Source of the DNA: Psammoneis japonica
Lineage: Eukaryota
Direction of reading: 5' to 3'
Assembly (NCBI GenBank): GCA_008632985.1
Contig: QPGO01000129.1
Coordinates: 62,001 to 126,000 of the forward strand
DNA length: 64,000 nt
The notes under the pieces are model-generated. The model saw only the letters and a program-made list of their open reading frames with translations. It did not search any database and was not told where the DNA came from. Below, in pieces: positions 1,569 through 44,426 of this stretch. Numbering within the stretch: the stretch's first letter is position 1; the number at the start of each line of letters is the position of its first letter. Both the position numbers and the translations under genes were made by a program.

Positions 1569-1640
1569 AGGACTTGTAGTGATTTATTTGGATCGTGTCT
1601 TTTTGCAGCTCATGCACCGCAACCGCAACTTGTTTTACAG
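1500..1640 (+). repeat. 70-bp tandem duplication of the 3' end of the upstream CDS, with a partial third copy at ~1706-1746
   Basis: 1500-1569 and 1570-1640 both read gga(t/c)ttgtagtgat...tcgtgtctttt..cagctcat..ac.gcaaccg.aacttgtttta. Confidence 0.8.
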
Positions 1641-2018
1641 CAAAAATGAATTACTACGATAATGTGCCCGCAGGAATTGCCTTTGCTAGCGCCATTTGAG
1701 GCTATGATTCGTGGTGTATTAGTCGTGTCTATTGGCAACCGAAACATGCTCCACTGATAAAAGCAATTAGTTGAATGCTAACCGATGCATACGTCATTTA
1801 CTTTCCTTACGCCAGATAGCTTATTCACTTTTTGCCTGGAAAGTCAATAATGTATGCATCGGTTAGCATTCTATTACTACGTACTATGTACACTATCGAC
1901 GCCAAACATTGCCTCGGTCTTTCCATTCCAGAGGTCTCAACGGGCTTGGCGATACTGTACTGTTTCCCTCTGGGGCGTGGCCTTTCCAATTTTGCCCGAC
2001 GTCTCTTACGCTATGCAA

Positions 2019-4940: not shown

Positions 4941-5278
4941 GACTCTTTTCAATTCTGATAATTACAAAGCAACAAGAACAGAGGTTTGGCAATGGCAGGG
5001 CACTTGAAGCATGAACGAGTTATTGCCTTCTCATACATCCTCTGCCCGATGTCGTGGTGATGAATTGATGAAGTGCAACAACGACAGGATCAAGGATTTA
5101 TAAGTCTATCAGGATGTACAAGCTCCGGTACAAATCTACGTGCGAGCCTGTTGCCATGCGTGGTACGAACACCGTTAAAATTTGTACTGCATTGTACGGC
5201 AGTCTACGTAGGGCTTCTGACGGGACGAACTTATCATTTATAAATAAACATTCACAAATATCATATATACCTCGAAGA

Positions 5279-7465: not shown

Positions 7466-7958
7466 ATAATGTACTATGTTCCGTGATGGTGTCTTGAGGT
7501 GCTGTATTTCTTGAGGCGCTGTCTCAACTCATCCAGCGCACACCGCAACCTTACTGCAGTACAGAGAGGACAGTCATGCACCACTTGACAAGAAATGAGA
7601 CGAACTTGAGGTATAATGTACTATGTTCCGTGATGGTGTCTTGAGGTGCTGTATTTCTTGAGGCGCTGTCTCAACTCATCCAGCGCACACCGCAACCTTA
7701 CTGCAGTACAGAGAGGACAGTCATGCACCACTTGACAAGAAATGAGACAAACTTGAGGTATAATGTACCGTGTTCCGTGATGGTGTCTTGAGGTGCTGTA
7801 TTTCTTGAGGCGCTGTCTCAACTCATCCAGCGCACACCGCAACCTTACTGCAGTACAGAGAGGACAGTCATGCACCACTTGACAAGAAATGAGACGAACT
7901 TGAGGTATAATGTACCGTGTTCCGTGATGGTGTCTTGAGGTGCTGTATTTCTTGAGGC
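7466..7958 (+). repeat. 147-bp tandem repeat, about 3.3 near-identical copies
   Basis: ccgtgatggtgtcttgagg starts at 7481, 7628, 7775 and 7922 (period exactly 147). Confidence 0.95.
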
Positions 7959-7993
7959 ACTGTACTGTATGTCTTAAGTTTGCAAAACTCGTT

Positions 7994-11186: not shown

Positions 11187-12194
11187 GACTGACAGCAAGA
11201 AAGATGCAGAATGGCCCCAAACAAGTTGTTCTCTGTGTGTTTTGAGTGTTGGTCGTCTTATTTCGGCGTGCTCTCTCCTAGCTACCTACTGTAGCGTCCT
11301 CGCAAAAACTTGCGAGAAAATCTTTTATTAGTCCTAATAGCTGTATAAGATATATTATTTGAAAAGTATCCAAAATGGAGAAATTTTATCTTCACTCAAA
11401 TTTTCAAAATCTCTCGCCGCGATGTCGTTCCAACGAACCGTTCTGTCAGTGGCTTTGATTCCCACATTTCAATGGCACTTTTGTCAGGGGATGAAGACCA
11501 AGCTACTCATGGTGGCATTGGTTGCGGTTCTTCCAGAGAGTGCTGCGCTTTGCACCATGTCAAGGGTTCTCATGTCAAGGCAAGTCACCTGACTTGGTTT
11601 TCCGTGATGTCGCCAAACAATGTCAGATTTTCTTTTTCCACGACAATGTGACATCATCCCATGACATCATTCTGCAAAGCTGCCCAGCAAGATGTTGGCA
11701 TCTGCTTGAGCTGCTTTGCATGCTGCCATGTCCACTTGAGCCACCCTGTTTGAAGTGGCATCGCTCAACATCTGGGACGCCAACAATCTGGGTCTGACCG
11801 TCTGCCATGATCTGCTGGGCATTTCTTGACTTCAATGCCAGATTTTTGTCAACTCACAAGCCAATTCTCTCCTCAAATATAATGTGAGAACTGCACAAGT
11901 TTATAAGCTTCTAAAACCTAAATCGCTTCTCACTTTTAAGTGTGGTCATTCCTTTCACACAATGCAGACCTGCGCCCCAATTGACATTTGGGGTTTCTCG
12001 TTCTTTTAACACAAATGTTGCTGCTTGCAATCCACCCTCCTTTTCCACCAACTCGTCCTACATTTTATCTCATTGCCGTGCCGTTTTCAAATCCAAATTC
12101 CCAATTGCCACACATTGTTGCATCTAAACCGCATCGCAGAATGTTTTTTTTAATTTTCACTCATCTGGATGTTGTTGTTTGTTTCAAATTAAGC

Positions 12195-13305
12195 TCACAC
12201 ACCAGTTTGGTTGGTGGCCATTGCGGTGTTTGCTGCCGCTCTGTTGCCTGCAGCCACCGCCTGCAATGGCAGGTCCTCTCCCATTGGCGCCGCCCATCCT
12301 TCCTCTCTCTCCTTTCTTTTTTCCTCTCTCTTGCGTTTCTTGTTTTCCTCCTGAGACAAGTTTGTCTTCTCTCGCCTTCTCTCCTTGAACCATGCACCGA
12401 ATCCCTGGTTGTTCTCTCTGTCTTTCACCACCCACTGACACAGATCATTGCACTTCTCGATCCCCTCCTTGCTCCATCCTTGGTTCCTCTTTGCCGATTC
12501 CCCCGCCGCCTGCGCTGTGCACTTTGCAGGAGCAGCATCTTTCACAGTTGGCTTTCTTCTCCTTGCAACATTTTCTTCCTTTTCCAATTTCTCTGCCGTG
12601 TCCTTCACCTTGTTGCAGTGGTTCAAGTGCACTGGCAGAGCAAATGCCTCTGATGAAACTGAAAGCCATTCCTGAAGCATGTCGGTTGTGCTTCTGCCAA
12701 ACTGCACTTGTCCCACCACCGTCGGCACCACAGTTTCCAAGAAACACGCGCATGTGTCCTTGTCATTTCTTCCCTTTGTCAAGTCTTCGCAAGCCACCAG
12801 CGATCCCTCTAAAGCAGCAACTGCACAGACAATGGCAAAGGAAGAGACACTCATCCCGTCAGACAATCGCCTCCAACACAATCACCGGCACGCACACATC
12901 TGCTTGCCTGTCATTCTCCCCCCAATGTTGTCCTGCACATCATTCCTCTTTTGGTTGAGTTTGGTCCTGAACACCTCTTTGTGTTCTTCCCAGAACTTCT
13001 CCGGTGAAGACACCATGCTCCTCAACTCCTGCAGAACCAATTTCATGCAATCTCCTCCCACAGCGAGTTCATGATCGAAGATTGTGAACTTGCGACATGG
13101 CCAAACACTCTCATTGATGACCTTGGTCAACATCGATGCTGTCAATTTCTCACTCACCGCCGGTGCACGATCCAACACAAGACATCCCTCTGTGGGAGTC
13201 ACCACCGAACTTGAATCGCCACCTGCATGCTGGAATCTGTTCAATTCTCCCCATGTTTGTTTCTTTGTGCATGCAACAAGGCCGCCACCGCAGGACTCAT
13301 GGTGA
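12195..13305 (-). pseudogene. Accessory ORF of the type accompanying Plavaka transposases, frameshifted
   Basis: ORFs 12882..13244 and 12195..12881 give FWEEHK...KRN, SVSSEAFALPVHLNH and KCT...GWSKEGIEKCNDL...VVKDRE. These match the S-D-EAF...GWSxEG..YNxL...DR pattern as I recall it, with Tyr->Cys/His changes. Confidence 0.5.
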
Positions 13306-13965
13306 CTTCATGTGACGCCACACAGATCAATCCAATGATTGTGTTGGTTCATCAGCAACTCTTTGTCATGTCCTTTCTCAATCTCACTTGCCACTGGAAG
13401 TTACACTTCCTCCCTCCGTCGCTCCTGTGAGAGCCGCATCCTCCATTTTTTTTACCTTCCCAATGGCTTCCTCTTTTTTGGAACTTCCGTCCTTTCCTGT
13501 CACTTTGTGAAAGGCAAGTTGCAAAAAGAACGCACTTTTGTATGTGATTTTCTCGGTTTTGTTGTTGCTCGCGTGTCCTCTCTCAATTCAAACAGGTCTT
13601 TGCATCATTTTTGAGTTCTCATTCCCAACCCCATGTTTGCATTTCTGTCAACATTTCACTGTTTTGAATTGTGTGCCTTTTTTGGCCAATCCAGTGCACC
13701 AATGAAGATTGCCATGTCATTTGAATCAATGCCAAACAACATGTTGTATCTCCTTGTGTTGATGCATGCATTGCGCTTCCTTGTTGATGCAACATCTGCT
13801 TCCTTTGGCACATTGAGTCATGTCAAACCTCCCATTTGTTGTCCCTGTCTTAATGGGTCATTCCCTCTACTTCCCTGACACCACATTTGTCCAGTTGCTC
13901 TCTCTGTTGCCCAAATTTTCCAGTCCACTTTAATGTCCACTGAAGTGTGTTGTTGTCACTGAGAC

Positions 13966-14660
13966 ATGGTTGTCGTGAGTCGTTCCCATCATGGGAATGC
14001 GTGTTCCCTCTGCTGCAATCACATGCCGCCAATTGATGATCAAATTGGTCATTTTGCTGGTGGTGGTGTGGAATCACACGGTGGTGCGGCAAGCTTTGCC
14101 TTCTCTGCCGAGGTTGTTTGTAACCCCGCTCTCTTTGCGGCACAAATTCGAAGCCGTTTTAATTTCCTCAACGTTGGCGGTGGTGTTGGCGGTTTTGCAA
14201 TTGCCTGTCGTCTGCTTGTTCCTGCCTGCAATGCCTGCAGCATCGAGTTCCACCACCATCCCCGTCATGATCTTGGCTCTCAGTGGTGCAATGCCATGTG
14301 GCACAACAATGCCAGTCGCTTCCCTGCCCTGATCAATCAGGACTTCCTCTCCGAAGACGATGCTGTTCGTCGGTTGCACCGTCTGAACAACTTAAAGATT
14401 TTTTCAATGACTGCAATGGGCAAATGCTTTTTGACAACAACGCGGCACAGAACCAACTCGAGGAGATGCTGTCCAACGAGTGTCCTGAAGGTGCTGTTGT
14501 CATTTCACTGGACGTGATGTTTTGTGTTCACACGCACAAATGGAGGCATGAAGCATTCTTTGTTCCTGCCTGTCCAGACAATCTGTCGTGGGGAGGCGGT
14601 GTCGACAGGCACCTGCTTCACAAGTGCACCAAGCATTCCACTGGGAACGACCTGGGGTCT
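13966..14660 (+). pseudogene. DOT1-like class I SAM-dependent (histone H3K79-type) methyltransferase, frameshifted
   Basis: ESHGG (YG-like), FLNVGGGVGGF (motif I), CSIEF, INQDFL. A frameshift in the T-run at ~14400 joins LKIF to FND...QLEEMLSNECPEGAVVISL...DNLSWGGG. Motif order matches DOT1. Confidence 0.55.
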
Positions 14661-14854
14661 GACATCAAATGTAAATTCAAGCCTGCCAAAAGTGGGCAAC
14701 TTTGCAATTTCACTTTGTTCACAATGCAACTGTCGTCCATGCAAGCAATGCATTGTCAATCAGCCCTTTACACAAACCTGCTTTGCACCCATGTCAACTT
14801 GCTGCTTCACCAGTTTTGCATTCCAACACATGCTTGTTCACACGCTTGCTGTGT

Positions 14855-15450
14855 TCACACGCTCACTGTGTCAAAATTGTGGACCAGACATGCCATGTTC
14901 CTTTGATCCGAATTCGTTTTGTCAGGCAAAGCTCGGTGCAACATTCTTGCATCAAAAACAAATGCAGTGCCTGCTTCTCCAACCAGCAATTGTTTTTCCA
15001 AACCCAACCTGACCAATTGTCTTTCGCGTTCCTTCTCATTCAATGTTGCCTCACAACTGTCCGGCCATGTCTCCACTGCACCATTGTGCTCCGTCGTGTC
15101 ATCGAGGAACAGAAACATGGTGAAAATTTTGTCACCAGGTGACAATTTTGTTTCCACGTAATCGCGATGAATTTCCCCCTTTGACCAGAAGTTGGATCTT
15201 GAACTTGAAGCAGGAGCATTTGCTGCTGTGTGCCGGGACATCTTTCTGCTCAAATCACCCGCCAGGGGAAAGCCAGGAATTAACTCCAACATTTTTTCTG
15301 CCAACCCAATGCCTTCCGCCTTTTCCTTTTTGTTGATGGCGAACTCACCGACAAAACGGTGTCCTTCCTTTTCTCCCTTCCCACTTGGTGCCTTGTTTGC
15401 AAGAATTGTTGTCTTGTTGAGCAGGGGTGGTGGTGTTTTGAATTTTTGCA
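14855..15450 (-). pseudogene. PhyH-like Fe(II)/2-oxoglutarate dioxygenase; 5' end uncertain
   Basis: C-terminal part of ORF 14855..15841 reads EIHRD (HxD), IFTMFLFLDDTTEHNGAVETWPDS, GEAGTAFVFDARMLHRA (distal His) and DQR. Confidence 0.75.
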
Positions 15451-17049
15451 AGCAGCCTTTTTTTCTTTCCTGGTGCTCTCTTTCTTTGGACCCCACCTTC
15501 TTGCTCTTGACGACATGAGATTTCATTTCGCCCGGGCGTGTCAGCAACTTGCCATGTTCCTGGCCTGACATTGTCGGCCAACGGGCAAATTTCTGGCATC
15601 CGTTCACAGAACACTTCCGCGCCATTCTCTGAAGTTGCCTGTTCCACCAAATCAATTGGCACCCAGTCTTTTTCTTTAAGTGGAACAGACCCAACACAGC
15701 GAAAGTCCGCACCCATTGCTTTGCAACAAAAACGGCTTTCTCTCCAAATGTGTGTTGCCAACGGCAGTCTGTCTGTTGTGGGCACCACGGGTGTTTTTTT
15801 CGCAAACAGTCCCATGTGATGTTTTGACAATGGCAGTCCATCTGTTGGGTGCATCACAGATGTTTTTTTTGCAAATGGTCGCGTGTGATGTGATCTTCGT
15901 CGATCCTGTTTGCTGAATGATCTCATCAAATTGGTCATCCCAGCTGTCTCAAAAGCATGGAAAACAATTTTGTTACTCACAATTCTGTCAGTGATGATGT
16001 GAGACATTTTCACATCACCACAGTGGCAGACACAAAGCAAAAGCTTCCGTCCACAGTACATTCCGCACCACAAACAAACTGTTGCTTTTTTGGCAATGCA
16101 CCCATCTGTCAACAGAGCAATTTGGTGTCACTTTTTTGTCATTAGAGCCATTTGTTGACAAAGTAATTCAGCACCACTTTTCTGTTGTTAAACACATTTG
16201 TTGACAGAAGAATTTGGCATCAGTTTTTTGTCAACACAGACACATGGTGATGCATGCCTTTGGCGCCACTTTTTCACTTGTGCACTTGACACTGGCCTGC
16301 ACAGCATCGTGACACAAAGTGCCTCTCCCACAGCAAACCACATTCTCCCGAATCTTGTCCAAGTCGCTGATCAACTCATGTTGAGCAGTGAACAGATGTT
16401 GTTTGGGCAACTCCATTTCTTGTCTTCCGCAGCCTTGTCATTCCCTTTGCAGAACAACAACCTCAAAATGATCCCACCCCAAAGAATCGTGCCAAATCCC
16501 TCACCTGTCAGGCCACGTCACCGAAATGGAACCAACGAATCTCTTTTCTGTCCAATGCATCGTACTTCTCTCCCAGCGACATTCCACCTGACTCAACCTG
16601 CAGTGTTGACCAACAACCCATCTGGGCGTTGTCCCCCGCCGGTGCATCTGGCCCCGTTTGGCACAGAAAACAGCCTTGACACCAAATTGAGGCTCCATCA
16701 TTCTCCCACACGTTGGGCAAATGAATGTGGTCCTGTTCATTCATCACTCAAAAAAAGTGGTTTGACAGATGACTTAATCCGCGGCATTGTGCTGATGATG
16801 TTTGACACGAAAATCTTTACGTTCAAGAGCAGTGGGAAGAGCAATGTGTGCAACCCAAACCACCTTGGTGAATTTGCAAAATGGCCGGCACACCCAAGCT
16901 GCGTTAGATTGGCTTTGAAGGAGGCCGCCCTGCCAGAGCTGGCTCAACGAAAGAAAAAAAGGCACGCAAAAAAATCATTGATGCTCGCTGCTTCCAAAAC
17001 AAAAAATGCAAAAGATCTGCAGCGGTGCAGGCAAGGGATTGCATCTTGC

Positions 17050-17466
17050 GCACTGCTTCCACTTCCCATCTGTTTCTTGCCTAAAAAATTGTTGTTGATG
17101 TTTCCTAGAATGACGCCATTGCCAAAGCTCCAACAATTGCAGCTGGTGTCGACTCCTGTGTGGAAGGTGCCAAAGACGATGACAATGACACAACATGGGC
17201 GGAGACGGATGTCATGGATGACGAACAACAAATTTGGACTGTTGCAGACAGTGAAGAACATTCGTTGGTGAGGGATTTCATCTGTCACACTGCTTCCCTT
17301 TCCTGTCGGTTCCCTGCCTGACAAAGTGCATGTTGATGTCTCCCAGAATGATGGCAATGATCAAAGTCAAGCGATTGCCACCGGTGTTGACTCCGTTGAG
17401 GTGGCTGCCCACAACAATGACAACGACTCCACATGGGCGGAGACAGATGACATGGTTGACGAACAT
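17050..17466 (+). repeat. Diverged ~238-bp tandem duplication within the cargo gene
   Basis: cactgcttcc...gttgatgt.tcc.agaatga...acatgggcggagac...gacgaaca occurs twice; the anchor acatgggcggagac is at 17193 and 17431. Confidence 0.75.
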
Positions 17467-17554
17467 CCAATTAACACCAGCAGATTGTTGGTGATTGGCA
17501 TGGAAGTTGGTGGTGATTTAAATGGAAGTGACAAAGATGCACGCGACAGCATTC

Positions 17555-17949
17555 GACGCGTTCCAGCCCTGGGTGGGAGCTCGTAGCACTGACGTGTGAC
17601 ACAAATAATTTTTGTCATCCGTCGTATGTTTTGCACGTACATTTCTACGTGTAATATTTAAAAAAATTGTCCAGACTCGCTGTTTTGCGAAGCCCCAGAC
17701 GTTTTACATAACGAATTTATAGAAACAGTAATGCGCCAGTTACATTCTTCAATGTCTGAAGAATGTAACTGGCTAAGTAAAAAACGATGTACTTCAATCA
17801 TGTGCGAGTTTGTGCGTTCGCAAAATTGCCTCATTTTCTGTCGGCGAACATTGACATTCTAATTACTGTATAATTTTACTACGGAGCTCGCACGTAGAAT
17901 TCTACGGGCCCAATGTCACACGGATTCCCACCTACGTCTGGAACGCGTC
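17555..17949. mobile_element. 395-bp MITE, copy 1
   Basis: Imperfect TIRs gacgcgttccagccctgggtggga / tcccacctacgtctggaacgcgtc. 4-bp TSD ATTC at 17551-17554 and 17950-17953. Retains TpA. Confidence 0.85.
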
Positions 17950-20900
17950 ATTCAAACTCAACGTCTGGTGGATCTTGGATGTGACGTTTGCACAATTGAC
18001 AAGAGGATGCGCTGTGCTTCCTCGCCGAAGCACATGGAGTGTGATGTTCTAAGTTTGCACAGATCAGCGGAACGGAAGAGATCATCCAAAGAGACAAAGT
18101 TCGATCACATTTGCTTTGACTGCGTGTGTTCAAACCCGGCCCATCTCTCGGCTTCAGCTCCAAAGGGACCTTTTTTCCAAGATGCACTCAGGGAGCTGCT
18201 GCGGTCGCTGACGGACAATGGGGTGTTCTTCCTGCCTGCGCACAATCTTGCGTTTTCCGAGTTTTGGATCGAATGGAAGAAACAACACATGTCAGAAGAG
18301 CACCCAATGCGTTTCTTGCATGAAGAGCAAGCACACGACGAGGTTCCCATCCTTCGAGACGAGGCACAAGTGGACATCTCTGCCTGCGGAAAGTTTTGTA
18401 CAAGGGAAGAATGCACCAAGGATTGTGAGTTAAAACACGAAGAAGTGAAACGCCTCACAGCAACAGATGAAGCTACATTGGCGCATTTTCCAGATTTCCG
18501 GGGTCCAGTCAAATGCATCGGATTAACTGGAAGAAGAAAGGACCCATGCTGTGTGCCAGTTTTCACCGGTGGCAACTGTGTGTGTTGTCCAACATGCAGT
18601 CTTAAGAGACACGAGCGTTTTCGGCGATGCCCACATTGGAATGCGGCGCAGTTTGATCTTGACTGCAAAGACGCACCTGACTCAGCATGTGGGACAAAAA
18701 ACAGCAAGAAAACCAGCGAAGAAACTCTCCTCCAGCAAATCAAACAGTGCAACGCCGATCTTCTCAGCTGTTGGAGGCAGAAGGACCAACCACATGGGGT
18801 TGGTGGCAAGAACTGGGATTTGTCCTCAATGCATCCCAAAAGCATTGGCGAAAATGCGAGCATGAAACAACCTTGCCGGAAGTCCAACAAGCTGTCTGAC
18901 ACATTCGACAACAACATTCTGTTCATTGAAAAACCAGGCAGGGCGGGAACGAGGTGTTCCCTCGTCATCCACTTCAAGCTGCGTGTGACAGCACATGGTG
19001 TGATGGGTCCGAATGCTTCAAAGCAAATGTGTCGGCACCTGCAAAGCGAGGTGGAGATTTTACATTCGGATGCCAACCACCCGCACAGGGCAAGCGATCC
19101 AACTCGTCCATTCGTTTTGAACCCAGACACAATGGAGGGAATCACCAACGGTGACGTCTTCAGGTCGTGCAAGTTTGACAAAAGAATTCTTGGATTGGGT
19201 TTGTCAATGCAGCTCAGGAACATTGTTGAACAGGGGCTGAGCAGTGGGTTGGCAAGAGAGTTTTTACTTGCAGCAAAGTTTGACCATTCATTTCAAGGGA
19301 CTTTGGTGTGAATGGAGTGATTGCTCAAGGTTGGAGCCGCCATGGAGGGTCAGGTGTTGCAAGGCCTGGAACGACAGAAAAGGAAAAGGACCTCTCTCCA
19401 AGATGCAGACAGTGGATTTTGCAACTGACCGTGATTTTGGTTCACATCATGTGCCAAAAAGCTTTGCAGGGAACACCAAGGTCTTCCCAAGGAGTGATGT
19501 CGGAGGAAAGACAAAGGTTGTCTGAGAAATGCCAAGTCTGGTTGGGTTGCCCAGAACGATTGCGAGATGTGTCAAAGCTCAATGAGGCAGGATCTCACAT
19601 TGCCGGTTTTGCTTTCACACACTTCGATGGGAAAAATGAGTGGGAATTCCTCTTGGATGACATTGGCAACGGTGTTGTCTTCATTGATGATTGGTGGGAT
19701 TACAACATTTGCGAAGATTTGGTGGACAAGCTGAAAAGGCACTCGGTCCCCATCACCAACACCACGTTTGGCCATCTGTCGTACAACAGAGAGATTGTCG
19801 GACTTCAGCTGCAAAAGCTGCTGTTCAAGACGGATTGTGAACATGCAAATGCCCCATTCGAACAACTGGAATCCCCGACAGATGGCTTCAACCTTTCGAC
19901 CATGGCGAACAAAGATGACATTCAGCATGCAACCCAGCATGTCAGGGATCACCTGCAGCGATTTGACAGTGGCAACCACAAAGGCATGTTGGGATTGCTT
20001 GTTGACAAAGGCAAAGACAGAGACCTCCTCCTGGGATTGATCGCCCACAGTTGGTTCAATTTCACATTCCACCATGAGGGGTGCATTGCTTTTCACCACG
20101 GAGACGAATTCGCGGCATTTGTGGGCATGGAATTCAATGGTGCACCTCTTGTTGCTCTTGTGGCTTTGAAAGAATCTGTGAAACCCGAAAACCAAGAATC
20201 AATGAAAACCTTGTTGCAGAAAAATGAGATGGGATTGTTGTGCCACCGATTGGTGTCCATGACGAAGCAATTGAAGAACAACGGCGACATGAACGGAATT
20301 GTGTGTTCGACGTTACAGAGATTTCAACGCATGGATCCTTCCTTGACCAAAATTAAGGAGATGCGAATCCACTGTGTGTTCATTTCCAGTCAATTTGATG
20401 TTCTGCAGGCAAAGACACCAATGGAAGTCACGAATCTGCCAGGGAACTTTTGTTTTGTCGCGAAGCCAGGAAGAACAAACTGCCAGAGCATTGGCTGCCT
20501 GGCACAAGGTTGGCTGATGTGCGTGGGGCTCTGACGATCCAATCGGCTTCCGTCATGGGACAAATCCCCCCTCAAAATGCAGCAGTGGAGCACAAATCCA
20601 AGGGTGATTCTGGATTTTGTCTGTTTGTTAACATGTGTGTTGTCGGGAAAGAAGCACACGAGAGAGGTGAACGGATCTCCTCGTTGAGGGCAAGGGAAGT
20701 TGTTCAAGATGCAATTGAAGTTGCAAGAAAAAATGGTGGGAGACCAACTTGGGCCAAATGTGACCAACTGGGCTGCAGGGAATGTCGATCGATGAACAAC
20801 AAGTTGCGCAAGGATCCACACCACCTCGTGTCAAGCGATCAGGGTGTGTCACCCATTCGCTCTGTGGAACATTCGACCAAGTCGACAAGCGGTTTGTGGC

Positions 20901-21102
20901 CTGACGAATCGGAGCACAGGGTTGAGCATTTCATTTGTGATCAATGGTGTGATTTGTCAACTCATGTCGATGTTTGCTCTTTTGTCAAGTCAAAGCATGA
21001 CTTGACAAAGCAGAAGGGTTTGTTACAATTCCGAGAATCAAAACTGAGCGGGACCAACCAGTGCTTTTAGACATGTCAGCATGCCATTGGTCTTCAATGT
21101 AC

Positions 21103-21499
21103 GACGGGTTCCAGTCCTAGGTGGGACTCCGTGTTACATTGGGCCCGTAGAATTCTACGTGCGAGCTCCGTAGTAAAATTATACTGCAATGAAAACATGC
21201 ATGATCGCCAACAGAAAAAGAGGCAATTTTACGAACGTATCTCCTCCTTCATGCTTGGAGTACATCATTGACAGTTTGCCCGGGTATATTCTTCAGACAT
21301 TAAAGAACATACCCAGCGTATTTTCATTCTCATAAATGTTGAAAATAGAAAGCCTTTGGCTTCGCAAAACAGGGAGTATGAAACAATTTCGTAGAATGTC
21401 ACACGTAGAAATGTACGTGCGCGACATGCGACGCGATCCAAAAAACTGTTGATGTCACAGTTCAGCAGTACGAGGTCCCACCTAGAGCTGGAACGCGTC
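21103..21499. mobile_element. 397-bp MITE, copy 2, same family in opposite orientation
   Basis: TIRs gacgggttccagtcctaggtggga / tcccacctagagctggaacgcgtc. 4-bp TSD GTAC at 21099-21102 and 21500-21503. Shares tataattttactacggagctcgcacgtagaattctacgggccc (inverted) with copy 1. Confidence 0.85.
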
Positions 21500-21531
21500 G
21501 TACTCACTGATAGAAGCAGCAACATTACACT

Positions 21532-24500
21532 TCAACTTACTTGCTGATAGAAGGAGCAACAATGAGTGGTGCCAACAGATGCTGTCAGACAGGTTGACAC
21601 ACCTTTTACAGTGAACTCATTGCGAACGTGTTTCCTTTTTCCCAAGGTGCGTTGTCGTTTCTCCTTGTCTCGCTTCCTGCGTTTATCCAGGTGGAGCTGG
21701 ATCACTTTGTTGGACAGGAAATGATTCGGCCAGTCATTGTGTCTGTCTGCAACAAACAACATTGAGCTCGAGCATCCCAGCGCTTCAACATTGTCTTCAT
21801 TGCAGTTGTCAGGAACAAGGACAGAGAAACCACCCACTGCTGTTGCGTCTCTGCTGGCACGCCAAAATTTTGGGATCATCTGAGACTCTCTGCCATGACC
21901 AACAGTTGTTGTTTCAAGTTCCCAGTGCTCGACCACACCGCTGGAAGACTTGCCACGCAACGTCTTCATCTGTTCCTTGCACGGCTGTCCTGCGGCAAGC
22001 GGCGTTGTTCCGTCATCAGCTGGCACGAAACCACGGAGCACAAACGGGCACTTTTTTTCTGACCAGTTCCCTCTTCATGTGAGACCCTGGGTGTGTCGTG
22101 CCACAACCCATTGTTGTTGCAACTGGGGTGTCCACGCATTAAAATCCCTTTCTCTGGTGTGGCAAACCCCGAGCAAACAACTGCTTCATCGCACTTGACG
22201 CAAAGTTCCTCCGTTGGCGACAACAAAAACTCAAGCAGGGCAGAGACCAATTCTGCAGTTTCCGGGAGGACACGGATCTTGTTGCTGCCTGAACACTGAC
22301 AGCAAGTTCGTGCAGTTCTGTTCACAACAAACAAGGGGTGCATCAATTTTTCTTCAGAGGAATTTACGCTCGCCTGTCCAACCGTGGAAGGGATGAGAAG
22401 ACTGTGTGCCTTCTCAAGAACTGCCATGTCATGCAAATGCACAACAAGTTGGTCCAAGAAATTGTCTGCACCCAGTGCAACCTGGCAAGTTTTTGCCGGA
22501 AGCTTGGCCCAGAACTTCAGGTGACTCTCTCCAGTCATGGCAGAGAAATTTGCAATCTGGCCACAAAGGAACGAGTCGATGATGAGATGCAGCATAGAAT
22601 GGAACTTGGTGGTCCAGAACAAATGAGTGTTCCTTGCACGACAAAGGCATGCTTTTATCTTGAACATGAGCAGGACGACTCGGCACTTGAAATCCACCTC
22701 ACCTGTTTTTCCATGAAGTCCCTTTCCATGCAGACAAAACAAATGGAAAAGCAGCATGTGATGCAACAAGTCCAACAATTCATCGACTCCACAATCGACG
22801 GATTTTTTGGCTGTCGTTTCGTCATCTACCATCTTCACAAAAGCTTGAGGAAGTTGGTTTTCCATTTCTGCATGGATGACAGTGCTTGGCAATTTTGACT
22901 TGGTGAGCAGACAGTGCCGTCTGTCTGCACACCTTGCAAAGTTGTCCCGATCATCTGCCGATTCAACGACAAGACCATGTGGTCCGGGTGTCAACAATTG
23001 TTCAGGTGAAGTCTCAACAGCCCGTTGTTTCCATCTCAACGATTTTGTTTCGTCCTGTGCAATCTTCTGGCACAACAAAAAGTGATCGTTGTCCAGTTGC
23101 TTGGAAAATGGTTCCCAAAATTCAGAAAGTCCGTGACGATGCATCTGTTGCATCACAGAGTTTCGGTGATGAAGATTGGATGGGTCGCAGGCGACATCAG
23201 ACCATGTCTCTTTAGGAAGTGCAACAGCCGCATTCTCATCAACCTGGCTTGTGTTGGTTGTGCCGGTTTGTTCATTGGATGGTTCAACGGGCTCAGCATC
23301 CTCATCATCGGGTTCACTTTCTGAGGATTTGGTCAATTGTTCATCTTGTTGCTTCTTTCCTTTAAAGCCATCAGCCGTCTTTTTCTTTTTGCTGTCAAAG
23401 GATGGATCGCACCTTTTTCCAGCAGTTTTCTACCAGCGTGTGTGTGACCAATGATTGCAAGTGCGAGAAGCTTTCCCATCTTCTCGTCACACGCAAGTTG
23501 ACTGAGTGTGGAAAGTCCCCCGTTAACTCGAATTCGCGGGCAGTCACGTCTCTGACCTGGATGACAATGGGATGTGCAGAATGGCTCAGATGCAATGCGG
23601 TCGTGTTCCTTTTTCCATTTGGCAGACATCTCTCCAATGATTGCCTCCATCATTTGAGGGACAATGCCCGCCTCCAACACATGCATTGTGTCAGCAACAG
23701 TCATGCCAAATGCACCACATGGGTTGTCGCCCATGTCAAGTGGAAAGTGAGCATTGTCCACTGCATGCTGTCCAAACACTTTTCTCAAAATTTTGGAGCA
23801 CACGGTCATTCGGCGAATGAGGGATGAAGCCAGCTCAGTCTCAGCCTTTTTTTTTGATGTCATTGTACGATGTTTCCGGGAAACACTTTTGACATGCTGG
23901 TGCCAACAGCTGTTGTCATCCTCTGGATCCGGGCCCAATGCAGCCACAGTGAGCAACTCCATGAAAGCTTGGTTAAAAAATTGGCAGACATGAAGGGGGT
24001 CATCAGAACGGTGGGAGGGCACATGGCAGTTGTGAGACAACCTCTCGGTCTTGCTTCGGCCCATGACTCTTCCACAAATGCGTTCTTGATTGAGGATGTC
24101 CCCCAACAGGGAGTTGCAATGCATCGCCACTCTGACACGGCAGTGTTGAGTGCCTGTCATTGCACGAACAATGGGTGGATTCGCCTGGCAATGAAGCAGA
24201 CCACGGAGGACCTCCGTGAGAATGCGGTGACAGTTGGCAACAACAAGGTGCCCAAGCTTGTCTTTCTTGTCTTTCCTGTCCAAATTGGGCATGAATCCGA
24301 GTGGACGCCAACAACGGCAGTCACGGCGTGCATCCTCTTGAATCATGGCAAGTGAGCACATTGCAGGCTCCATCCCGTGAGGATTGACCGCATTGACTCC
24401 TGTCTTGTCCAAGCAGTTGACAAGGTGAACGTGAAAATCAGATGCCGTTTCCTTTGCATTGGTGCAACGTTGTTGCCACTTGCCGTCACCCATGTCTTGA

Positions 24501-25948
24501 CTTTGAGTGGACAATCGCCAGTCCCCAGGATGATCCGGGAACGACATCTCAAAACCGTCAGCCGGGCCAGCACTGGGTTCCAAATCGCCGTCGGTGGGGG
24601 GTGGCACACAAGGTGACCAGACATCATTTGGGTTGACCTGCAACTTGGAAAGATCACGGAACACTGGCTTGGTGAAGAGATCCTGCAAGGTCTCGGTGAA
24701 ACTGCAAACCGGGAAAGGTGGGGAGCGACGACATTTGGGTCCGTCCTTCTGTTGCTGTGTTGGATTGTTACATTCTAGCATCACAGTGGCAGTGCGGGGG
24801 AGAGGAACATTGGGAAACAACCCTGGGAGTTGCTTCATCGCCACGGCGGCAGTGATGGGTGGCTTGGACAAATCCAGTCTTTTTTCTGCATGCTCTTCAT
24901 GCAAAATTCTCACCACTTTGTCGACAAAGTCAATTGCAACACCTGGCCGACGACACAAATGCGGCAAATGCACCATGGGTGCAATGCTGGGTGAGCAGAC
25001 TGGAGGTGCATCGAAATCCTCATCGGGTGCGGCATCACGCGGCGGGCCAAGAGGGTTGTGTTGATCAAGGGAGGAAACAGGATCTTCTGTCGGATGGGAA
25101 ATTGAGGGGGGGCCACAACTGCCATCGCGACGGTCGGCTCCAATGAACTCGGGAACATCCACAGGACTGTCCTCTCCAAGGGCGGACACACCATCATCTG
25201 CAAACAAAACAAATCGGCGGACATTTTGGGAGGCTGCACTGGCGGCAGCAAAGTTGGCAGCTGAGTGCAATCGACCAGAGCGTCTGATGGAGGGTGGGCA
25301 CAGTCCACTTCTGGCAGAGGGAGGACAAGCTAGAGAAGAATTGTCCATTGGTGTGGGAGGAGATGGAGCTGGATTCCAGAGGACTTCGGGGAGGGGAGGA
25401 GGGGGTTCGTTGTCGGAGAAACCAAACCCTGCAGGATCATCATGGTCGTCCAGTGATTCATCATGGTCGTCGTCTGGAGGGGGAAGTGCACGGGCGGCAG
25501 CAGAAGATGTGGCATGCAGGCGAAGGGACATTTCCTCTTTTTCACGGCAGGGCAAGTGCTTCTGTAGATGAAGGGCGATGTTGGAAAAGGGAACACGGCA
25601 ATGGGGACATTTGGGTTTGTTGGTGTTGGATCCAAGGGAGCCGACGGAGGCAGAATCCAGAGGATGAGAGGAAAGAGATGTTCCGCCGGATGAAGAAGAC
25701 AATTGGGTTGTGCGGCGCAACTGTGTCAATGGGGGATGGAGACCAGATGCTGCGGTGCAGTGCCGAGATGGGTGATGCTGCACGTTGTTTTCAGAGTCAA
25801 ATCCACGTTGTCCACAATGAGGACAACTAAAAGACTTGGTGGAAACTGTGGAACGGAGGCAGTTAGTTGCGATGTGCCTGCTGAGGCCACGTTCGGAAAA
25901 GAAACCGGTTCGTTTGCACCATGGACAAACAAGACCATCAGACGACAT
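21532..25948 (-). pseudogene. Plavaka-family transposase with three N-terminal C2H2-like Zn fingers, frameshifted
   Basis: ORFs 23333..25948, 21966..23336 and 21532..22041 give CLDKTG...MEP...WRPLGFMPNL, GDILNQERICGR, DTMHVLEAGI, KFHSMLH...G..AN...GESHLK..AKLP...Q and RGHPSC..NGLWHD. The N-terminus has three CPxC...H fingers. Confidence 0.8.
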
Positions 25949-26391
25949 GGCCGAAGCACACAGACGAAGGAGTTGAGAAGAGAATCAAAAGCAAACAGTG
26001 GGTGCAGCAACAATCACTTGGGGACACATTGAGGGCAGAAACACAGAGACACAACGTGCGGATGGACGGGGAGGAAGGATGGAATGGGCAGGGAGAGAAA
26101 ATTGAGAAAACAATTGGAGTCTAGGTTGATGGACGCAGGCGGCAATTTTGATCCAGAAAGTTGATCAACACACAATCCAGAAATTAAAATGGAGTTAAAT
26201 GTGCACACAAGGCTTGTCGGATGGGGGGGGCAAACAGCCAAATTGAGGAACACAGATGTGTGTTGTTGAACATTTCAGAAAAGCTGACTTGTCAAATCAG
26301 CACGATCTTGGACCAAAGGGAGAAAATGTCGGGTTTTATTTCAAGAAATCTTGACGGCTAGTGCGACACCTGGATCATTGGTGTCCCAGAT

Positions 26392-26479
26392 GAACTTGAG
26401 CCGCCCGCATGATGTGGCATCAACTTGAGCCGACTGCATGACATGGTGTCAACTTGAGCCACCCCTCATGACATGGTGT
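26392..26479 (+). repeat. Subterminal 29-bp tandem repeat (3 copies), with two related units at 11705-11762
   Basis: cttgagcc at 26395, 26424 and 26453; cttgagc at 11705 and 11735. Confidence 0.8.
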
Positions 26480-27069
26480 TTTCCTGTAGAAGCATGTGCA
26501 AACATCAAAGGAAAACAGGAGGTTGAGAGCACAAAAAATGCATTGAATCAACAGAATCTGTCAAACGATGTGGAGCAATTCAACAACTGAGAATGTGAGA
26601 ATGAAACAACAGCAAAATGACAGAAGCAGTTTTCATTCATTTTTGGACTTCATCTCACTTCTCTTTTTACAGATGCACTTGTTGGAGCAAAATGAATCAT
26701 GCCATGCATTGGCATTGTTGGCGGAAAACTGTTTGGTGGCAAAATCTATTTGGCAACAGTTGTTGACACCATCATGGTGTTTTTGGTGGCGGTTGGTGGC
26801 GGCACACCGGCAGGTGTTCGACATGGAAGGGAAGTCTGACCTGACGTCATGATGTTGCATGACATTTCACCATGGCGTGCATGCCAGAATCTGACATTGT
26901 GGTGGTGACATCAGCAGCCACAGTGGGAACAGTGTGAAACACACTGCATGCACTGCTGCACTTGACCTTGTGGCCATGACATCATCGCACATGTTGACAC
27001 GGGGAGAAGCAATCGACAAGTGCAAAGGTTTCATTGCAGTTGAGAAGCCATGAAAACTCTTTTATAAAA

Positions 27070-30000
27070 TGAGGGCATGCTCATTGAAATGTCCAGACAG
27101 GAACACAACAAAATGTCTTGTGTGATGTGGCCAAGTGGAGGGACATCAACAAAAGGGAGGTGTGGGGGGAAAGTCACTTGAGATGGTGCCCTTGAGAGAA
27201 CAATTCCCTTGCAATGGCAAAAACACCCTTGAGCTGTGGAAAGCAAAGTGAAGCCCATTTCCTGTGCAATGCCTGCAGAAAGCAGGAGCACCCCAAAGCA
27301 GCTTGCAAATGGCAAGAAGCACAACAACAAAACACTTCCCAGCAGGTGACTTTGTGCTCCTTCTTTGGCTGTGCAGTGCAGTGGCATGTCTCCAACAAAC
27401 ATGAACAGCAGTCAAATGGGCCAAACTGGGGCTTTGTCATGAAGTGTTGGGTGTGGCACTGCATGGCATGAAAAGCCAAAACTCCAAGAGCTCCTCTGCC
27501 TCCCTTGTTCTTTTCTCTTTGAGCTCTGGCAAAGAATCTTGGCAGAATGCAAAGACAAGCAGGAAGCTGGAGCAAGGGCCAACATTTCTGACTCAGCAGA
27601 CTTTGCTTGCATGGCAAAAGGTCAGGTGCTCACAAGTTGTCTGGGGCTCAGACAGGTTTTTGGTGCAGTGGCAGGAGGAGAAGGAGGAGCTTGCTGCTCT
27701 CTGGGAGCCAGTTTGAACCTCATGGTGGTGTGTCAGCTGCCAGCAGAGTGATCACCTGAGCTGCTCACTTGCAAATGAAGCTGAAAGCCATGACAAAGCA
27801 AAGCAATGAGCCACGTTGGCAGAGTGGCTTCAATTGTTTGTTTGACCCTTGAATGGAGTCTGGGTTTCCAGCAGAAACCAAGTCAAGAGATTGCAGCTTC
27901 AAGCTGCATCAACAGGCTCTTCACTCATTTCTTGTGTGCTCTGGTGTGGGTGCTTGTTGCAGCTGTGCTTGCCTTGACTTTGTCAATGACTGGAGAGCAC
28001 AAAAGCAACAAGAAGGGTGAGCCCAACCAGCAATGATGTGGCAGCCCCCCTTCTCCTTTTTTGCTCTCTTCACAATCTGCACACTGTTGTTTTTGGCTTC
28101 TGTTGCTTGTGCTCCTTGCCTCACATGATGAACAAATCTGTCTTCCATCTGTCTTCATGTCCCCAGTCCATGGCTTTGGCAACTCACCCTCTCAGTGTGC
28201 ATTGGCAGCTGCGCCATCCAGGGCCTTGACCACCATTCTTTCCAAAGTGCTGGCAAAAGCTCTGGATTGCAGCAAAGCACACCTGCAGCTCTTCCAGTTT
28301 CCATCAGGAGCCACAAAGCCCCTGTGCCTGTGTCGGAAGCTGTGCTGGCTCATGTTCTGAGTCAGGATCTTGGAACACTTCCTTCAGTGTGGTCATTTGT
28401 GGCTGCTCTTGTCTTGGTCATTAGAGCTGTTTGGAGCCAAGCTGTGCCCAGCAACACACCCAGGAAGAGTGAAAAAAAAACAATGTGCTCTTCATGAAGC
28501 AGGTGGTGTGGGTGGGCAGGTGTGTGTGTGTGTGTGGGNGGGGGGGGGGGGGGGGGGGGCAAAGAGAGGCAAAGAAAGACAAAGTCTTTTTGCTGGTTTG
28601 TTGGGCCCACTCCTCTGGCACCACTCCTCTCCTCCTGCTTGTCCAATCTTTGTCAATGGCACCTGCAATTCCCCAGGCCCCTGGTGGTGAGTTCTTGATG
28701 ACTGCGCTGCTGTCAAAATCTTTGGTGGGTGTGCTCCTTCCAAAGCTGCTGTGGTTGCTCCCTCTGATGCACCAGCGCTGGCCACTCCAAATCATCGTTG
28801 CAAGCCCTTGGTGGCACACGTCATGCTTTGGAAGCTGGTGCTGTTTGAAAGCCAGTGTGGGCATGTCCTTGGTGCATTTCTTCTGCATGTCAGGAGGGCC
28901 CTGCAGTGTTGGAGGCTGCACTCCAGCTCAGAAGTTTTTTGCATCAGTGCCACAACAAGTGTTGGAGAGGTTTTGTGCTCATGATGACCTCTCCACTCAG
29001 TTTCACAACCTCAGCTTGGTTGCTTGCAGCAGGGCTTCTTTGGGTTCTTGTTGTGCTCCAAAATTGCACTCCTCATGATGGCAACAAAGAACTTTTTCCA
29101 AACCCTCATTTTCACAGCCAAGATGTTTTTTGTCTTCCAGACATGGCTCCTTTGCCTCCAGCATCCCCAGATCCTTCAAGTTGTTGCCTCAAATCTTGTC
29201 CCTGCCTGCACCTCAACATGATGACCCCATCCCCCCCTTCAAAACAAAGATCAGCTGCTGCAACAAGATGCACCAGTTCAACCCAGCCCCCCTCAAGAGG
29301 TGGACAATCTCTTCCTCTAACCTCCCCTTGGTGACAACAAGTGCTGAAATGTGCTGCCAGCCTTGACTGTGCCATGTGCAGCTTTGTCTTCATTCCAAGA
29401 ATGGCGGTGTGCTTGATTGACCTGCAAGGCTGGTGTGCATGAAGTGCTGAACTCTGCATTGTTTTTCATCTTGGTTTGCTGTGAGTGAGCTTCTTTTGTT
29501 TGTCCAGGCTTGTTTTGCTCTTTGCCATCATTTGTTGGTGTTTGTTTGGATTTCAAAATGTTGTTTGCAGTGCTCTTGTTGCTTGCTGCTGTGTTTGTGG
29601 GGCTGCAGTCATTTGTCAGTTCTTGTGCTGTGTTTGCACTTTTGTTGTTGCTTTTCTTTCATTTTGCTGTGCACTGCAGTGTCTTGAAGGCCCCAATTGT
29701 TTGTCCTTTTTCTTGCCATTTGCTGCCATTGCAAGTGCCCACATTTTGCCATCTGCTGCTCTTGTTTGCTGCTCACCTTTGAGTCTTTCTCTGCTTGGTT
29801 GACTGGCTCTGAAGGAGTGAGGCCAAGGGAGTGCTTGCACTTGCATGTTTGCATGCATGTGCAGCATGTGCTCCTTCCTTGCTCTTTTGCTGCTTGCACT
29901 CACAGGGCCACTGCTTGTCATTTCAAGACCCAAGTTGGAGCCCCCACTGCTGCCACAAGTTTGTCCTCAATGCCCGCCACCATGCTGCTCCAGTGTGCAC

Positions 30001-31105
30001 CCACATTTCCACTCAAGTCACCAGCTCACTCTGCTTGCTGACTCAGCAAGCCCAGATCATTCACACTCTCTCAAAAAATGCCCCCCTTCCCAGACATTGA
30101 TGTGAGCTCTAGCTTTGGTGGGAATTTGCCGGAGGGGGCTGTGTGACATTTCATGTTTTTGAAGCCTCAGCGCAAATTTCAAATGCATTTCTTCTGTGTG
30201 CCTTTTGATTGAGTTTGTGCTGGCTTGTGGCCAGTCATGGCACAATCTGCCCAACAACTTGCAGTGGTTTTTGTTCAGCCACACATCTCTGACATCTGTG
30301 GGGTGTGACTGCAAGCAGGAGTTTGCCAAAATTTTGAGCATGAAGAGGTGCAATGATGGCACCACCAAAGTGGCCATGTGTTTTGATGTCAAAGATGGAT
30401 GCATTTTGTTGCCCAGCTCACAAGCTGCAGAGCTTGCATGCAGACATTTTCCCAAGTCTTCATGGAACACACATCACAAAATTTCTCTGTGGAAACAACA
30501 CTGGCTGCACATCCTCAGAGCTCACGACTCATCACACCGCAGAGAATTTTGTGCAAGCAGACCACTCTCCTGCAAAATGCACACAGAAATGTTTTCTGTT
30601 GACCTTCAAACAGCAGCGGAACATGTGTGTTTTCTCTTCAAGTGTGGGTCTGGAGCCCCCCCCCCCCAACAACCCCCCCAACAAAGGTGCCTCTTCCTTT
30701 TTCCTTTGCGGGGTTGAACAGGCCCCTCACCTTTTGTTGCAGCAGCACACTGGACGAGCTTCGAGAAATGAAAAGAAGGGTGGGAACCACTTCTGCTTGT
30801 GGGTGCCAGTTGTGGCAAAAGACATTTGCCACAGCTCTCCAGCACAGCAGTGTTGCCCAGGGTGCAGAGACCCCGTTTGTGCTGGAAACCCCGCACGTGT
30901 CAGCGACTCTTTTTGTTTGCTTTCACCAACTCTCTCGCAACTCAAAACAAAAACACAACTCCACTGCAGCACCCTGTCCATTTTTTGATCAACTGGAGAA
31001 TAAAGCCAAAGATTTGCTGAGTCCTCACTCCATGTCTCCAGAGTTGGTCGCCTGTTTTCACTCGAGGAACGGTGTGCACAGACACATTTTGCACTCGCCG
31101 CATGA
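27070..31105. other. Heavily degenerate relic, probably transposon-derived, depleted in both TpA and CpG; identity not recognisable
   Basis: Almost no TA and very few CG over ~4 kb. Dense spurious Cys/His/Gln-rich ORFs in all frames. No motif recognised. Confidence 0.5.
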
Positions 31106-39536: not shown

Positions 39537-40311
39537 GGTTGTTTTGTTTGTTTTTTGTGTGTGTGCTGTCTGACGGCTGACGGACCGTCGTGGGACTTTG
39601 TGCGCGCCCTGCGTGCGCACATGATGATGCGGGAGATCGACAGACGTTATCCGCACCAAAAAAACTCAAATTTCCTGTAGACTGGAGTTGGAGTAGGTAA
39701 ACTTACATCCAACTATGGCAACAACAGCCGCAATATAAAGCCTGTCGATTATTAGAAAAGCTCTTTTACATGTAGTGCTAATGATTAATACATTATGAAT
39801 ATTTCGGTCGTACGAGTAAGATAGGCGAGAGAGGGTTGGTCCGTGGTAGGATGAAGAAGATCTTTTTGGAACGCAGGTCACATTCAGCAGATTAAAGATG
39901 CGACCCAGTAGGAAAAGAATCTTTTTATGACTTGAATTCTCTAGAAGGATTGAAGTATCCGAAACAGCATTTAATCGCTTCTAGTAAGGCGTATTCAGCA
40001 GATTTGAACCTTGAAAAAGATTCCCGTGACTTCAATCGTCTTTAAGTATGGAAGATGCGTTTCATTTTTTTTGAAAAGAGAGGACTGTCTAAATGAGATA
40101 CCAGGGATACTACAAAAGTTTTTAAGTTAAAGCTTTCAGCGCATTTAGCCAACACAGCCTCAAGGATCGTCTCGAGACAACAACATGAGACAACGATAGA
40201 GGCATATCTCACAAATCACAGAAAGTAAACCGGTAAGGGATATTGAATACATACATGCAACAAGAAGAACCAGTGTTTCCCCACCCCCCATATTCTGAAT
40301 CCGTTGCAGCT

Positions 40312-44422: not shown

Positions 44423-44426
44423 GATC

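Follow-up and report, generated by a model that had tools for sequence, protein, structure and literature searches.

Probable TpA-specific hypermutation of transposon and tandem-repeat DNA in a diatom genome

To our knowledge, all eukaryotic hypermutation defences known before a 2026 preprint on the alga Bigelowiella natans, namely repeat-induced point mutation (RIP), APOBEC editing and decay of 5-methylcytosine (5mC), changed C to T. Here we analyse a 64,000-nucleotide stretch of the genome of Psammoneis japonica (hereafter the window; assembly GCA_008632985.1, contig QPGO01000129.1, positions 62,001 to 126,000 of the forward strand) in which transposon and repeat DNA has lost most of its TpA dinucleotides. 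In integrated viral DNA of B. natans, 230 of 231 new mutations were A-to-G or T-to-C, these all at TpA, with a rate in two integrated viral regions roughly 1000 times the background and activity in only some of the lines (Mettrop et al., bioRxiv 10.64898/2026.01.13.699255). The preprint's text also describes TpA-poor, CpA- and TpG-rich 1-kb clusters enriched in DDE and reverse-transcriptase domains, and a giant-virus (nucleocytoplasmic large DNA virus, NCLDV) insertion that is single-copy, so that the process there is independent of copy number (bioRxiv 10.64898/2026.01.13.699255). An earlier reading of the present sequence (the original prediction) had allowed that the signature might be unpublished; a TpA-specific signature had already been measured in the B. 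natans mutation-accumulation lines, and the likeness, as far as that source describes it, extends to A-to-G or T-to-C change at TpA only, giving TpG and CpA, in non-host DNA beside normal genes (bioRxiv 10.64898/2026.01.13.699255). Our literature search, which had most subscription journals outside its reach, returned TpA hypermutation only in this preprint, and no diatom report.

To describe the extent of the loss, TA was counted in 1-kb intervals along the window, and dinucleotides were pooled for depleted DNA (25,778 bp) and host DNA (36,984 bp). Host intervals held 17–71 TAs each (observed/expected ratio (o/e) 0.37–0.85), those at 12–16, 18–20, 22–30 and 61–63 kb held 0–8 (o/e 0.00–0.12) and those at 41–44 kb held 7–18 (o/e 0.10–0.23), which agrees with the near-loss of TA at 11.4–31.1 and 60.5–64 kb, and the reduction at 41.3–45.3 kb, in the original prediction. 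The flanking host genes have normal TA, as had also been stated: pooled counts were 1,508 (o/e 0.58) in host DNA versus 125 (o/e 0.07) in the depleted blocks, and the loss is restricted to these non-genic blocks. CG was also reduced (812, o/e 0.54, versus 2,010, o/e 0.99, in host DNA), and both TG (2,608, o/e 1.56, versus 2,625, o/e 1.15) and CA (2,521, o/e 1.63, versus 2,734, o/e 1.18) were in excess. Because G+C content is nearly equal (0.48 in depleted and 0.47 in host DNA) and the remaining dinucleotides shift far less between the classes, the effect is TA-specific, and partly CG-specific, rather than a shift in base composition; as a rough mass balance from the pooled counts, approximately 910 TA and 680 CG are missing, versus a surplus of approximately 1,380 TG plus CA. 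Block edges are sharp, to about 100 bp (approximately 11,388/11,504, 31,001, 41,287, 45,304 and 60,498), and the longest TA-free run spans 1,357 bp (27,065–28,422; P = 9 × 10−25 at host TA density). By the cluster thresholds given in the B. natans preprint, 18 of the 64 1-kb intervals qualify, in consecutive runs of 5, 2, 3, 5 and 3. Three TA-normal islets lie within the main block (11,878–12,190, 17,473–18,050 and 21,025–21,684; pooled TA o/e 0.63).

The loss has marked consequences for reading frames. Both strands together carry 183 TAA and TAG triplets in depleted DNA versus 1,255 in host DNA, and because of this scarcity the blocks are crowded with long frames (121 of the 226 open reading frames (ORFs) of at least 90 aa), as the original prediction had described. 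Tyr makes up 4 of 2,959 aa (0.14%) in six transposon ORFs, versus 138 of 6,023 aa (2.29%) in ten host ORFs, and Cys and His are approximately twice as frequent in depleted-block ORFs as in host ORFs. The claim that ORFs of 871, 456 and 447 aa contain no Tyr stood for the 883-aa and 487-aa stop-to-stop frames, each with 0 Tyr, and not for the full 482-aa frame, which has 1 Tyr, upstream of the 447-aa ORF. The motifs reported earlier are present: CLDK at 24,415 (minus strand), PCCPPDLNPIE at 61,403 (plus strand) and CQDN...CCPT at 63,942 (minus strand).

The direction and specificity of the change are recorded in four tandem copies of one repeat unit (the array at 41,329–44,421; Table 1). Dinucleotides that vary only within {TA, TG, CA}, or are TA in all copies, were taken as ancestral TA sites. 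Of 112 site-copies at 28 such sites, 45 are now TG, 43 are CA and 24 are still TA, so that 88 have changed, every one of them to TG or CA. At 17 of the 28 sites some copies have TG and others CA, and TA is still present at 10. A mixture of TG and CA takes two changes to arise, except where the ancestor was TA or CG. At ancestral CG, by comparison, 169 of 200 site-copies are kept and 31 changed, with a single site showing both TG and CA, and only 18 of the 615 remaining columns vary; loss per site is therefore about 79% for TA versus about 14% for CG. As CG is mostly kept, lost CG cannot be the source of the alternation between TG and CA. The near-equality of TG and CA shows that both strands are affected equally, and the 28–32 ancestral TAs per 774 bp correspond to a normal TA density, from which it follows that the array was amplified first and that each copy then lost its TAs separately, in place. 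Consistent with change by transition, nucleotide identity among the copies (93.6–94.5%) rises to 99.2–99.6% when the sequences are recoded as purines and pyrimidines (R/Y).

CpG decay is a second process in the same blocks, running alongside TA loss, slower and not coupled to it: the core at 27,015–30,700 lost both dinucleotides, and the array lost TA only. Decay of methylated CpG likewise yields TpG and CpA, and CG o/e is 0.03–0.64 in four of the five blocks; however, it cannot remove TpA. We therefore rejected CpG decay as the sole explanation, because the array has a TA o/e of 0.11 while its CG o/e is 1.13.

Loss of TA depends on the flanking bases. The per-base frequency of TTAA is the same in depleted as in host DNA (ratio 1.03; 40 versus 56 occurrences), whereas the ratios for ATAT, ATAC/GTAT and ATAG/CTAT drop to 0.013–0.018. 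TTAA accounts for 40 of the 125 residual TAs in depleted DNA versus 56 of 1,508 in host DNA (Fisher P = 2.7 × 10−22), and within the array TA survives in 16 of 28 site-copies of the T[TA]A context versus 8 of 84 in other contexts (P = 8 × 10−7). A model with one parameter per base 3′ of the edited A orders six contexts outside the fit perfectly. If the edited base is taken to be the A of 5′-T[A]N, sensitivity falls in the order N = T > C > G ≫ A.

A further trace is visible in conserved protein positions of the Plavaka-like transposase encoded at 21.7–26.4 kb, whose relatives contain 2.8% Tyr (median). Of 13 columns in which Tyr is conserved, the transposase in the window has Cys at 6, His at 4, Gln at 2, Phe at 1 and Tyr at none, and it otherwise keeps conserved residues (His at 10 of 10 columns, Cys at 6 of 7 and Gly at 22 of 25). 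Ten of the 13 replacements are the one-step products of TAY, and in these columns the earlier reading of conserved Tyr as Cys or His was correct. Two more nearly Tyr-free Plavaka-like families were found in public assemblies, P0129 (1 Tyr in 1,200 aa) and P0275 (1 in 1,290), whose relatives have 31–38 Tyr. In P0129 (a cluster of 8), five full-length copies differ at 20 columns, 12 of them within TA-codon families (Y/C/H at 7, I/M/T at 3, L/S at 1 and L/P at 1). These proteins hint at the same hypermutation outside the window, and their source organism could be this diatom itself; metagenome scans returned no relatives of the 487-aa ORF or of P0129.

Taken together, composition, the array and conserved Tyr agree with the core of the original prediction, A:T-to-G:C change at TA on several transposon superfamilies with host genes spared, and we consider it likely that an in-place process at the DNA level converts TpA to TpG or CpA in this diatom's transposons and repeats, and probably in further silenced DNA. 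Such a process would act on both strands alike until TA is almost gone. It would remove Tyr codons (TAY becoming TGY, Cys, or CAY, His), alter ATA, TTA, CTA and GTA codons as well, and destroy TAA and TAG while creating no new in-frame stops, the sole stop-like product being TGA from TAA, which is already a stop. Because no in-frame stops are made, dead elements would keep long frames and be inactivated by missense and read-through. From the location of the changes, we infer a role in genome defence.

To consider what is targeted, we used depth, by which we mean the summed k-mer depth of contigs at least 80% alike in one public run of one sample, and which is not a copy number. Relative to a single-copy level of approximately 58, summed depth is approximately 65–95 at 27.2–31.2 kb, 1,200–5,100 across most of 11.9–26.5 kb, and 16,600–62,900 in the bins that hold two copies of a miniature inverted-repeat transposable element (MITE), a family found at 270–1000 times the single-copy level. 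Contigs of depth 58–70 reproduce 26.4–31.2 kb with 0, 1 and 7 differences. With summed depth as a rough guide, about 5 kb at single-copy depth (26.4–31.0 kb plus 11,388–11,758) is TA-depleted and the abundant MITE is TA-normal. These depths do not establish repeat targeting as originally proposed: tandem and multi-copy elements are affected, but the strongest depletion lies in DNA at single-copy depth, and an abundant MITE of about 400 bp is untouched. The two MITE copies, which account for two of the three TA-normal islets, are 77% identical and differ by 42 transitions and 44 transversions, in nearly equal numbers, which indicates that they were not hypermutated; they may be younger, too short or unrecognised by whatever guides the process. 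At the left edge of the main block, a depth-59 contig spans 11,200–11,758 with 0 differences, and this single-copy edge (11,388–11,758), which is TA-poor yet retains CG, could be either spill-over or a fragment of old origin. From approximately 11,760 inward lies a nest of multi-copy transposon remnants (summed contig depth 1,500–5,000).

These features both link the locus to RIP and separate it from RIP. Shared with RIP are an in-place, transition-only and dinucleotide-specific hypermutation of transposons, a sharp contrast with genes and possible spill into unique DNA. However, RIP is a C-to-T change, mostly at CpA, that creates TpA and stops, whereas the process here removes both; and RIP depends on duplicated sequence and on the sexual phase of a fungus, whereas here single-copy-depth DNA is affected and an abundant MITE is not. 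Fungal RIP itself was rejected on the loss of TpA and of stops (TpA o/e 0.07; 183 TAA plus TAG versus 1,255). The host is a diatom, and neither a fungus nor Bigelowiella, on the evidence of the host THO-complex subunit 1 (THO1) ORF, whose best matches are from Odontella, Seminavis, Cyclotella, Thalassiosira and other diatoms, oomycete matches being much weaker.

Several points weigh against TpA hypermutation as a defence of the kind proposed, or limit how far it can be specified. The flank ranking takes host tetranucleotide frequencies for ancestral ones, and its counts are small (1–40). For the two Gln and the one Phe found where Tyr is conserved, extra steps or misalignment must be assumed. 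Two abundant MITE copies sit untouched inside the depleted domain, which a purely domain-wide process would not predict. Among the 40 best-supported of 1,782 differences between paralogues, 3 are TA-family and 12 are CG-family changes. The contigs probably come from a run on the same sample as the window, and the platform of that run is unrecorded. A role in defence is read from where the changes lie. Finally, TpA is palindromic, so that T-to-C and A-to-G give identical products and the sequence cannot separate the two chemistries.

With respect to chemistry, adenine deamination by a polynucleotide deaminase of the ADAT2/TadA type acting on DNA is the candidate that we favour, if still tentatively. 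The known natural tRNA substrate of these enzymes is always U33-A34. The B. natans preprint likewise proposes adenine deamination of the ADAT2/TadA type (Mettrop et al., bioRxiv 10.64898/2026.01.13.699255). The main rival, which we regard as unlikely, is a route through thymine, in which a TET/JBP-type dioxygenase would oxidise the T of TpA in silenced DNA to 5-hydroxymethyluracil (5hmU) or 5-formyluracil (5fU), and mispairing with G at replication would then lead to T-to-C change, seen as A-to-G in the complementary strand. 5fU mispairs with G, and 5hmU is mostly read as T. The palindromic site would yield the same TG and CA products, and there is a precedent in another alga of the SAR clade (Stramenopiles, Alveolates and Rhizaria): a dinoflagellate TET/JBP homologue makes 5hmU, which marks and is enriched on transposons, and thymine was found in older dinoflagellate work to be replaced preferentially in TA and TC (PMC11572971). 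The transposon nest also holds a dead ORF resembling 2-oxoglutarate- and Fe(II)-dependent (2OG-Fe(II))/PhyH-like oxygenases, though it is not a TET/JBP match, and none was found in the window. TpC, moreover, is not visibly affected (TC o/e 1.09 in depleted versus 1.14 in host DNA), and dinoflagellate 5hmU is described, in the part of that source drawn on here, as an epigenetic silencing mark and not a mutator (PMC11572971).

Returning to a change of the DNA itself at TpA, the non-mutational reading to be taken most seriously is that modified TpA (and 5mC at CpG) was miscalled in sequencing or assembly and that the real DNA keeps its TA and CG. Sharp edges and dependence on sequence context are what a modified domain would also show, TA and CG vanish jointly at 27.0–30.7 kb, and, as noted, the run platform is not recorded. 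We nevertheless consider such an artefact very unlikely. The public-run contigs that match 26.4–31.2 kb almost exactly (k-mer depth approximately 58, longest contig 315 kb) are not what noisy long reads of 2019 would be expected to give when assembled by exact words; the tandem array, which is just as poor in TA, retains its CG in full; and other public assemblies encode, on several contigs, Plavaka-like proteins that are Tyr-free and alternate between C and H and among M, T and I. In B. natans, Illumina mutation-accumulation data show real TpA mutations (bioRxiv 10.64898/2026.01.13.699255).

Two further explanations have next to no probability in our judgement. A natively TA-poor composition (for example, that of a TA-poor donor), or selection against TA as a way to avoid TA-targeting insertions or UA-cleaving RNases, might be entertained because dinucleotide bias can be a lineage property and the closest homologues of the Plavaka-like ORF are only 32–42% identical; yet Tyr was lost at all 13 conserved columns while intact relatives have 2–4% Tyr, the tandem copies alternate between TG and CA at 17 sites with TA left at 10, and the loss extends to at least four kinds of unrelated sequence, one of them a non-coding tandem repeat. 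Equally improbable is A-to-I editing of transposon RNA by an ADAR- or ADAT-like enzyme with a 5′-U preference, fixed through reverse transcription and re-insertion, although ADAR does prefer an A that follows U, and repeat RNA is among its hyper-edited substrates (bioRxiv 10.64898/2026.01.13.699255): Plavaka-like and Tc1-like DNA transposons and a tandem repeat are affected, each tandem copy changed separately in place with no sense-strand bias (TG 45 versus CA 43), and conserved Tyr became both Cys and His. Fixation by retrotransposition was rejected as contradicted by the array. More broadly, the animal deaminases APOBEC3 and ADAR resemble the process proposed here in that they edit mobile or foreign nucleic acid defensively, and ADAR also in favouring U/T before the edited A; however, they act on single-stranded retroviral cDNA (APOBEC3) or double-stranded RNA (ADAR), with strand bias in retroelements, whereas here both strands of DNA transposons and of a tandem repeat are changed in place.

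By analogy, we infer that TpA hypermutation in this diatom is the same process as that measured in B. natans, with several differences from what the preprint reports. The host there is a chlorarachniophyte (Rhizaria) and here a diatom (Stramenopiles). What is seen here is the end state, which is nearly saturated (o/e 0.02–0.12, versus 0.45 for the NCLDV region). The targets here are transposons and a tandem repeat, and no viral origin was seen in the blocks. Dependence on flanking bases, with TTAA spared, is not discussed in the main text of the preprint (bioRxiv 10.64898/2026.01.13.699255). New here are the second lineage, the transposon and tandem-repeat targets, the near-saturation, the proof that the changes followed amplification and the TTAA-sparing flank rule.

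With a diatom example, the TpA signature is no longer a peculiarity of a single alga but a candidate for a widespread defence, found in a second SAR lineage, and diatoms are among the main marine primary producers. It is possible, though doubtful, that diatoms and chlorarachniophytes share an old SAR-wide defence enzyme, a DNA adenine deaminase specific for 5′-TA(Y) and aimed at silenced transposon and viral DNA. If so, it would parallel RIP and APOBEC with adenine as its target and be the first DNA adenine base editor found in nature, and a DNA adenine deaminase would be relevant to base-editing work. The locus offers three handles for further study: the four tandem copies with independent hits serve as an in-genome clock, the flank rule (TAT > TAC > TAG ≫ TAA) must be reproduced by any candidate enzyme, and Tyr-free proteins with C/H and M/T/I alternation are a fingerprint for searches of public data. 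There are also implications for annotation, as affected elements escape Pfam and BLAST, retain long false ORFs and risk being annotated as genes. R/Y recoding recovers their structure, and it lengthened the detectable terminal inverted repeats (TIRs) of the Tc1-like element from 72 bp to 305 bp. Recoding before self-comparison recovers repeats erased by transitions and would be useful for annotating such genomes.

The elements themselves (Table 1) were assigned with varying firmness. For the Plavaka-like element, a search with the 487-aa ORF returned 141 homologues at E ≤ 1 × 10−3, and 3 of the 11 homologues scanned carry the Plavaka domain PF18759. A word-based homologue search with the 883-aa ORF gave no match; its homology is to proteins retrieved with the 487-aa ORF (best E = 1.4 × 10−72 in a set of 47), and a direct Pfam search gave no match for either ORF. 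As both match the same long proteins, they appear to be parts of one transposase of approximately 1,350 aa, split by a frameshift, and membership of the Plavaka (CACTA-like) family is supported through the homologues that carry PF18759. The Tc1-like element has a DDE_3 match at 61,244–61,588 (E = 5.2 × 10−6; 26.8 bits, below the Pfam cut-off of 28.6), and its PCCPPDLNPIE motif stands at the place of the Tc1 form, PPYSPDLNPIE; a comparison of its two TIR arms gives 67 transitions and 32 transversions, and counts 8 CA/TG and 16 CG-family sites. The copia-like call for the fragment at the window's end is at motif level (an RNase H C-terminal motif), with no Pfam match. Hence, of the three transposon superfamilies originally named, Plavaka-like stands through homologues, Tc1-like through a sub-cut-off DDE_3 match, motif and TIRs, and copia through its motif alone. 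A Pfam scan of 120 stop-to-stop ORFs of the depleted blocks gave no direct reverse-transcriptase, RNase H or Plavaka match, its only hits being the sub-cut-off DDE_3, PhyH/2OG-FeII_Oxy_3 and two weak repeat or zinc-finger matches. For the element at 18,051–21,024, no Pfam match was found, and a search of the protein Atlas with its 416-aa and 482-aa ORFs gave no usable match. The PhyH-like ORF is reminiscent of the dioxygenase genes that fungal KDZ/Plavaka transposons carry, and a PDB sequence search with it returned 0 matches at E ≤ 1.

Table 1. Coordinates of the features in the window (strand: +, plus; −, minus;., not stranded).
Feature	Coordinates	Strand	Details
TA-depleted block, left part	11,388–17,472	.	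TA o/e 0.10, CG o/e 0.54 over 11,505–17,472
Small TA-normal islet	11,878–12,190	.	13 TAs within roughly 310 bp; one contig runs directly from 11,930 to 12,200, skipping 269 bp
Dead PhyH/2OG-FeII_Oxy_3-like ORF	14,858–15,853	−	PhyH E = 1.3 × 10−5; within transposon nest
MITE copy 1, about 400 bp, TIRs starting GACGCGTTCCAG	17,554–17,954	+	TA-normal; summed contig depth 31,800–36,100 versus about 58 single-copy
MITE copy 2, inverted relative to copy 1	21,098–21,500	−	TA-normal; loose contig ends at 17,949 and 21,103
TA-depleted element	18,051–21,024	+	TA o/e 0.06; ORFs 17,968–19,311 and 19,284–20,531
Plavaka-like DNA transposon remnant	21,685–26,434	−	ORFs 23,336–25,984 (883 aa) and 21,969–23,429 (487 aa)
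Stretch at single-copy depth, almost without TA	26,435–31,001	.	1–2 TAs per kb (o/e 0.02–0.03) over 27–31 kb
Host THO-complex subunit 1 ORF	36,861–39,665	−	Best matches 35–45% identity, diatoms
TA-depleted block with tandem array	41,288–45,304	.	Four 773-bp units at 41,329–44,421; TA o/e 0.11, CG o/e 1.13
Tc1/mariner-like remnant	60,440–62,960	+	TIRs of about 305 bp at 60,440–60,744 and 62,658–62,960
TA-free copia-like fragment, cut by window end	62,961–64,000	−	Motif CQDN...NIWHFF...CCPT...TTKPL; 0 TAs in 63,001–64,000

The islet at 11,878–12,190 is probably a later insertion of about 270 bp. Two contigs, one each, join 11,762 to 26,586 and 11,753 to 26,437, skipping the 14.8-kb nest; they might represent a second haplotype without the nest, although, with just 22 letters of overlap on one side, they may instead be artefacts of a repeat. 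The single-copy stretch at 26,435–31,001 gave no Pfam match, and its core (27,015–30,700) is also nearly free of CG (o/e 0.03–0.22 over 27–31 kb). Within this TA- and CG-free core there is a single N at 28,539, and the public-run contigs break at 28,506–28,538, just before it, which leaves a small gap in the core. In the host part of the window, a tandem repeat of approximately 147 bp (7,466–7,963) has units that are 97.5–98.6% identical and a normal TA content.

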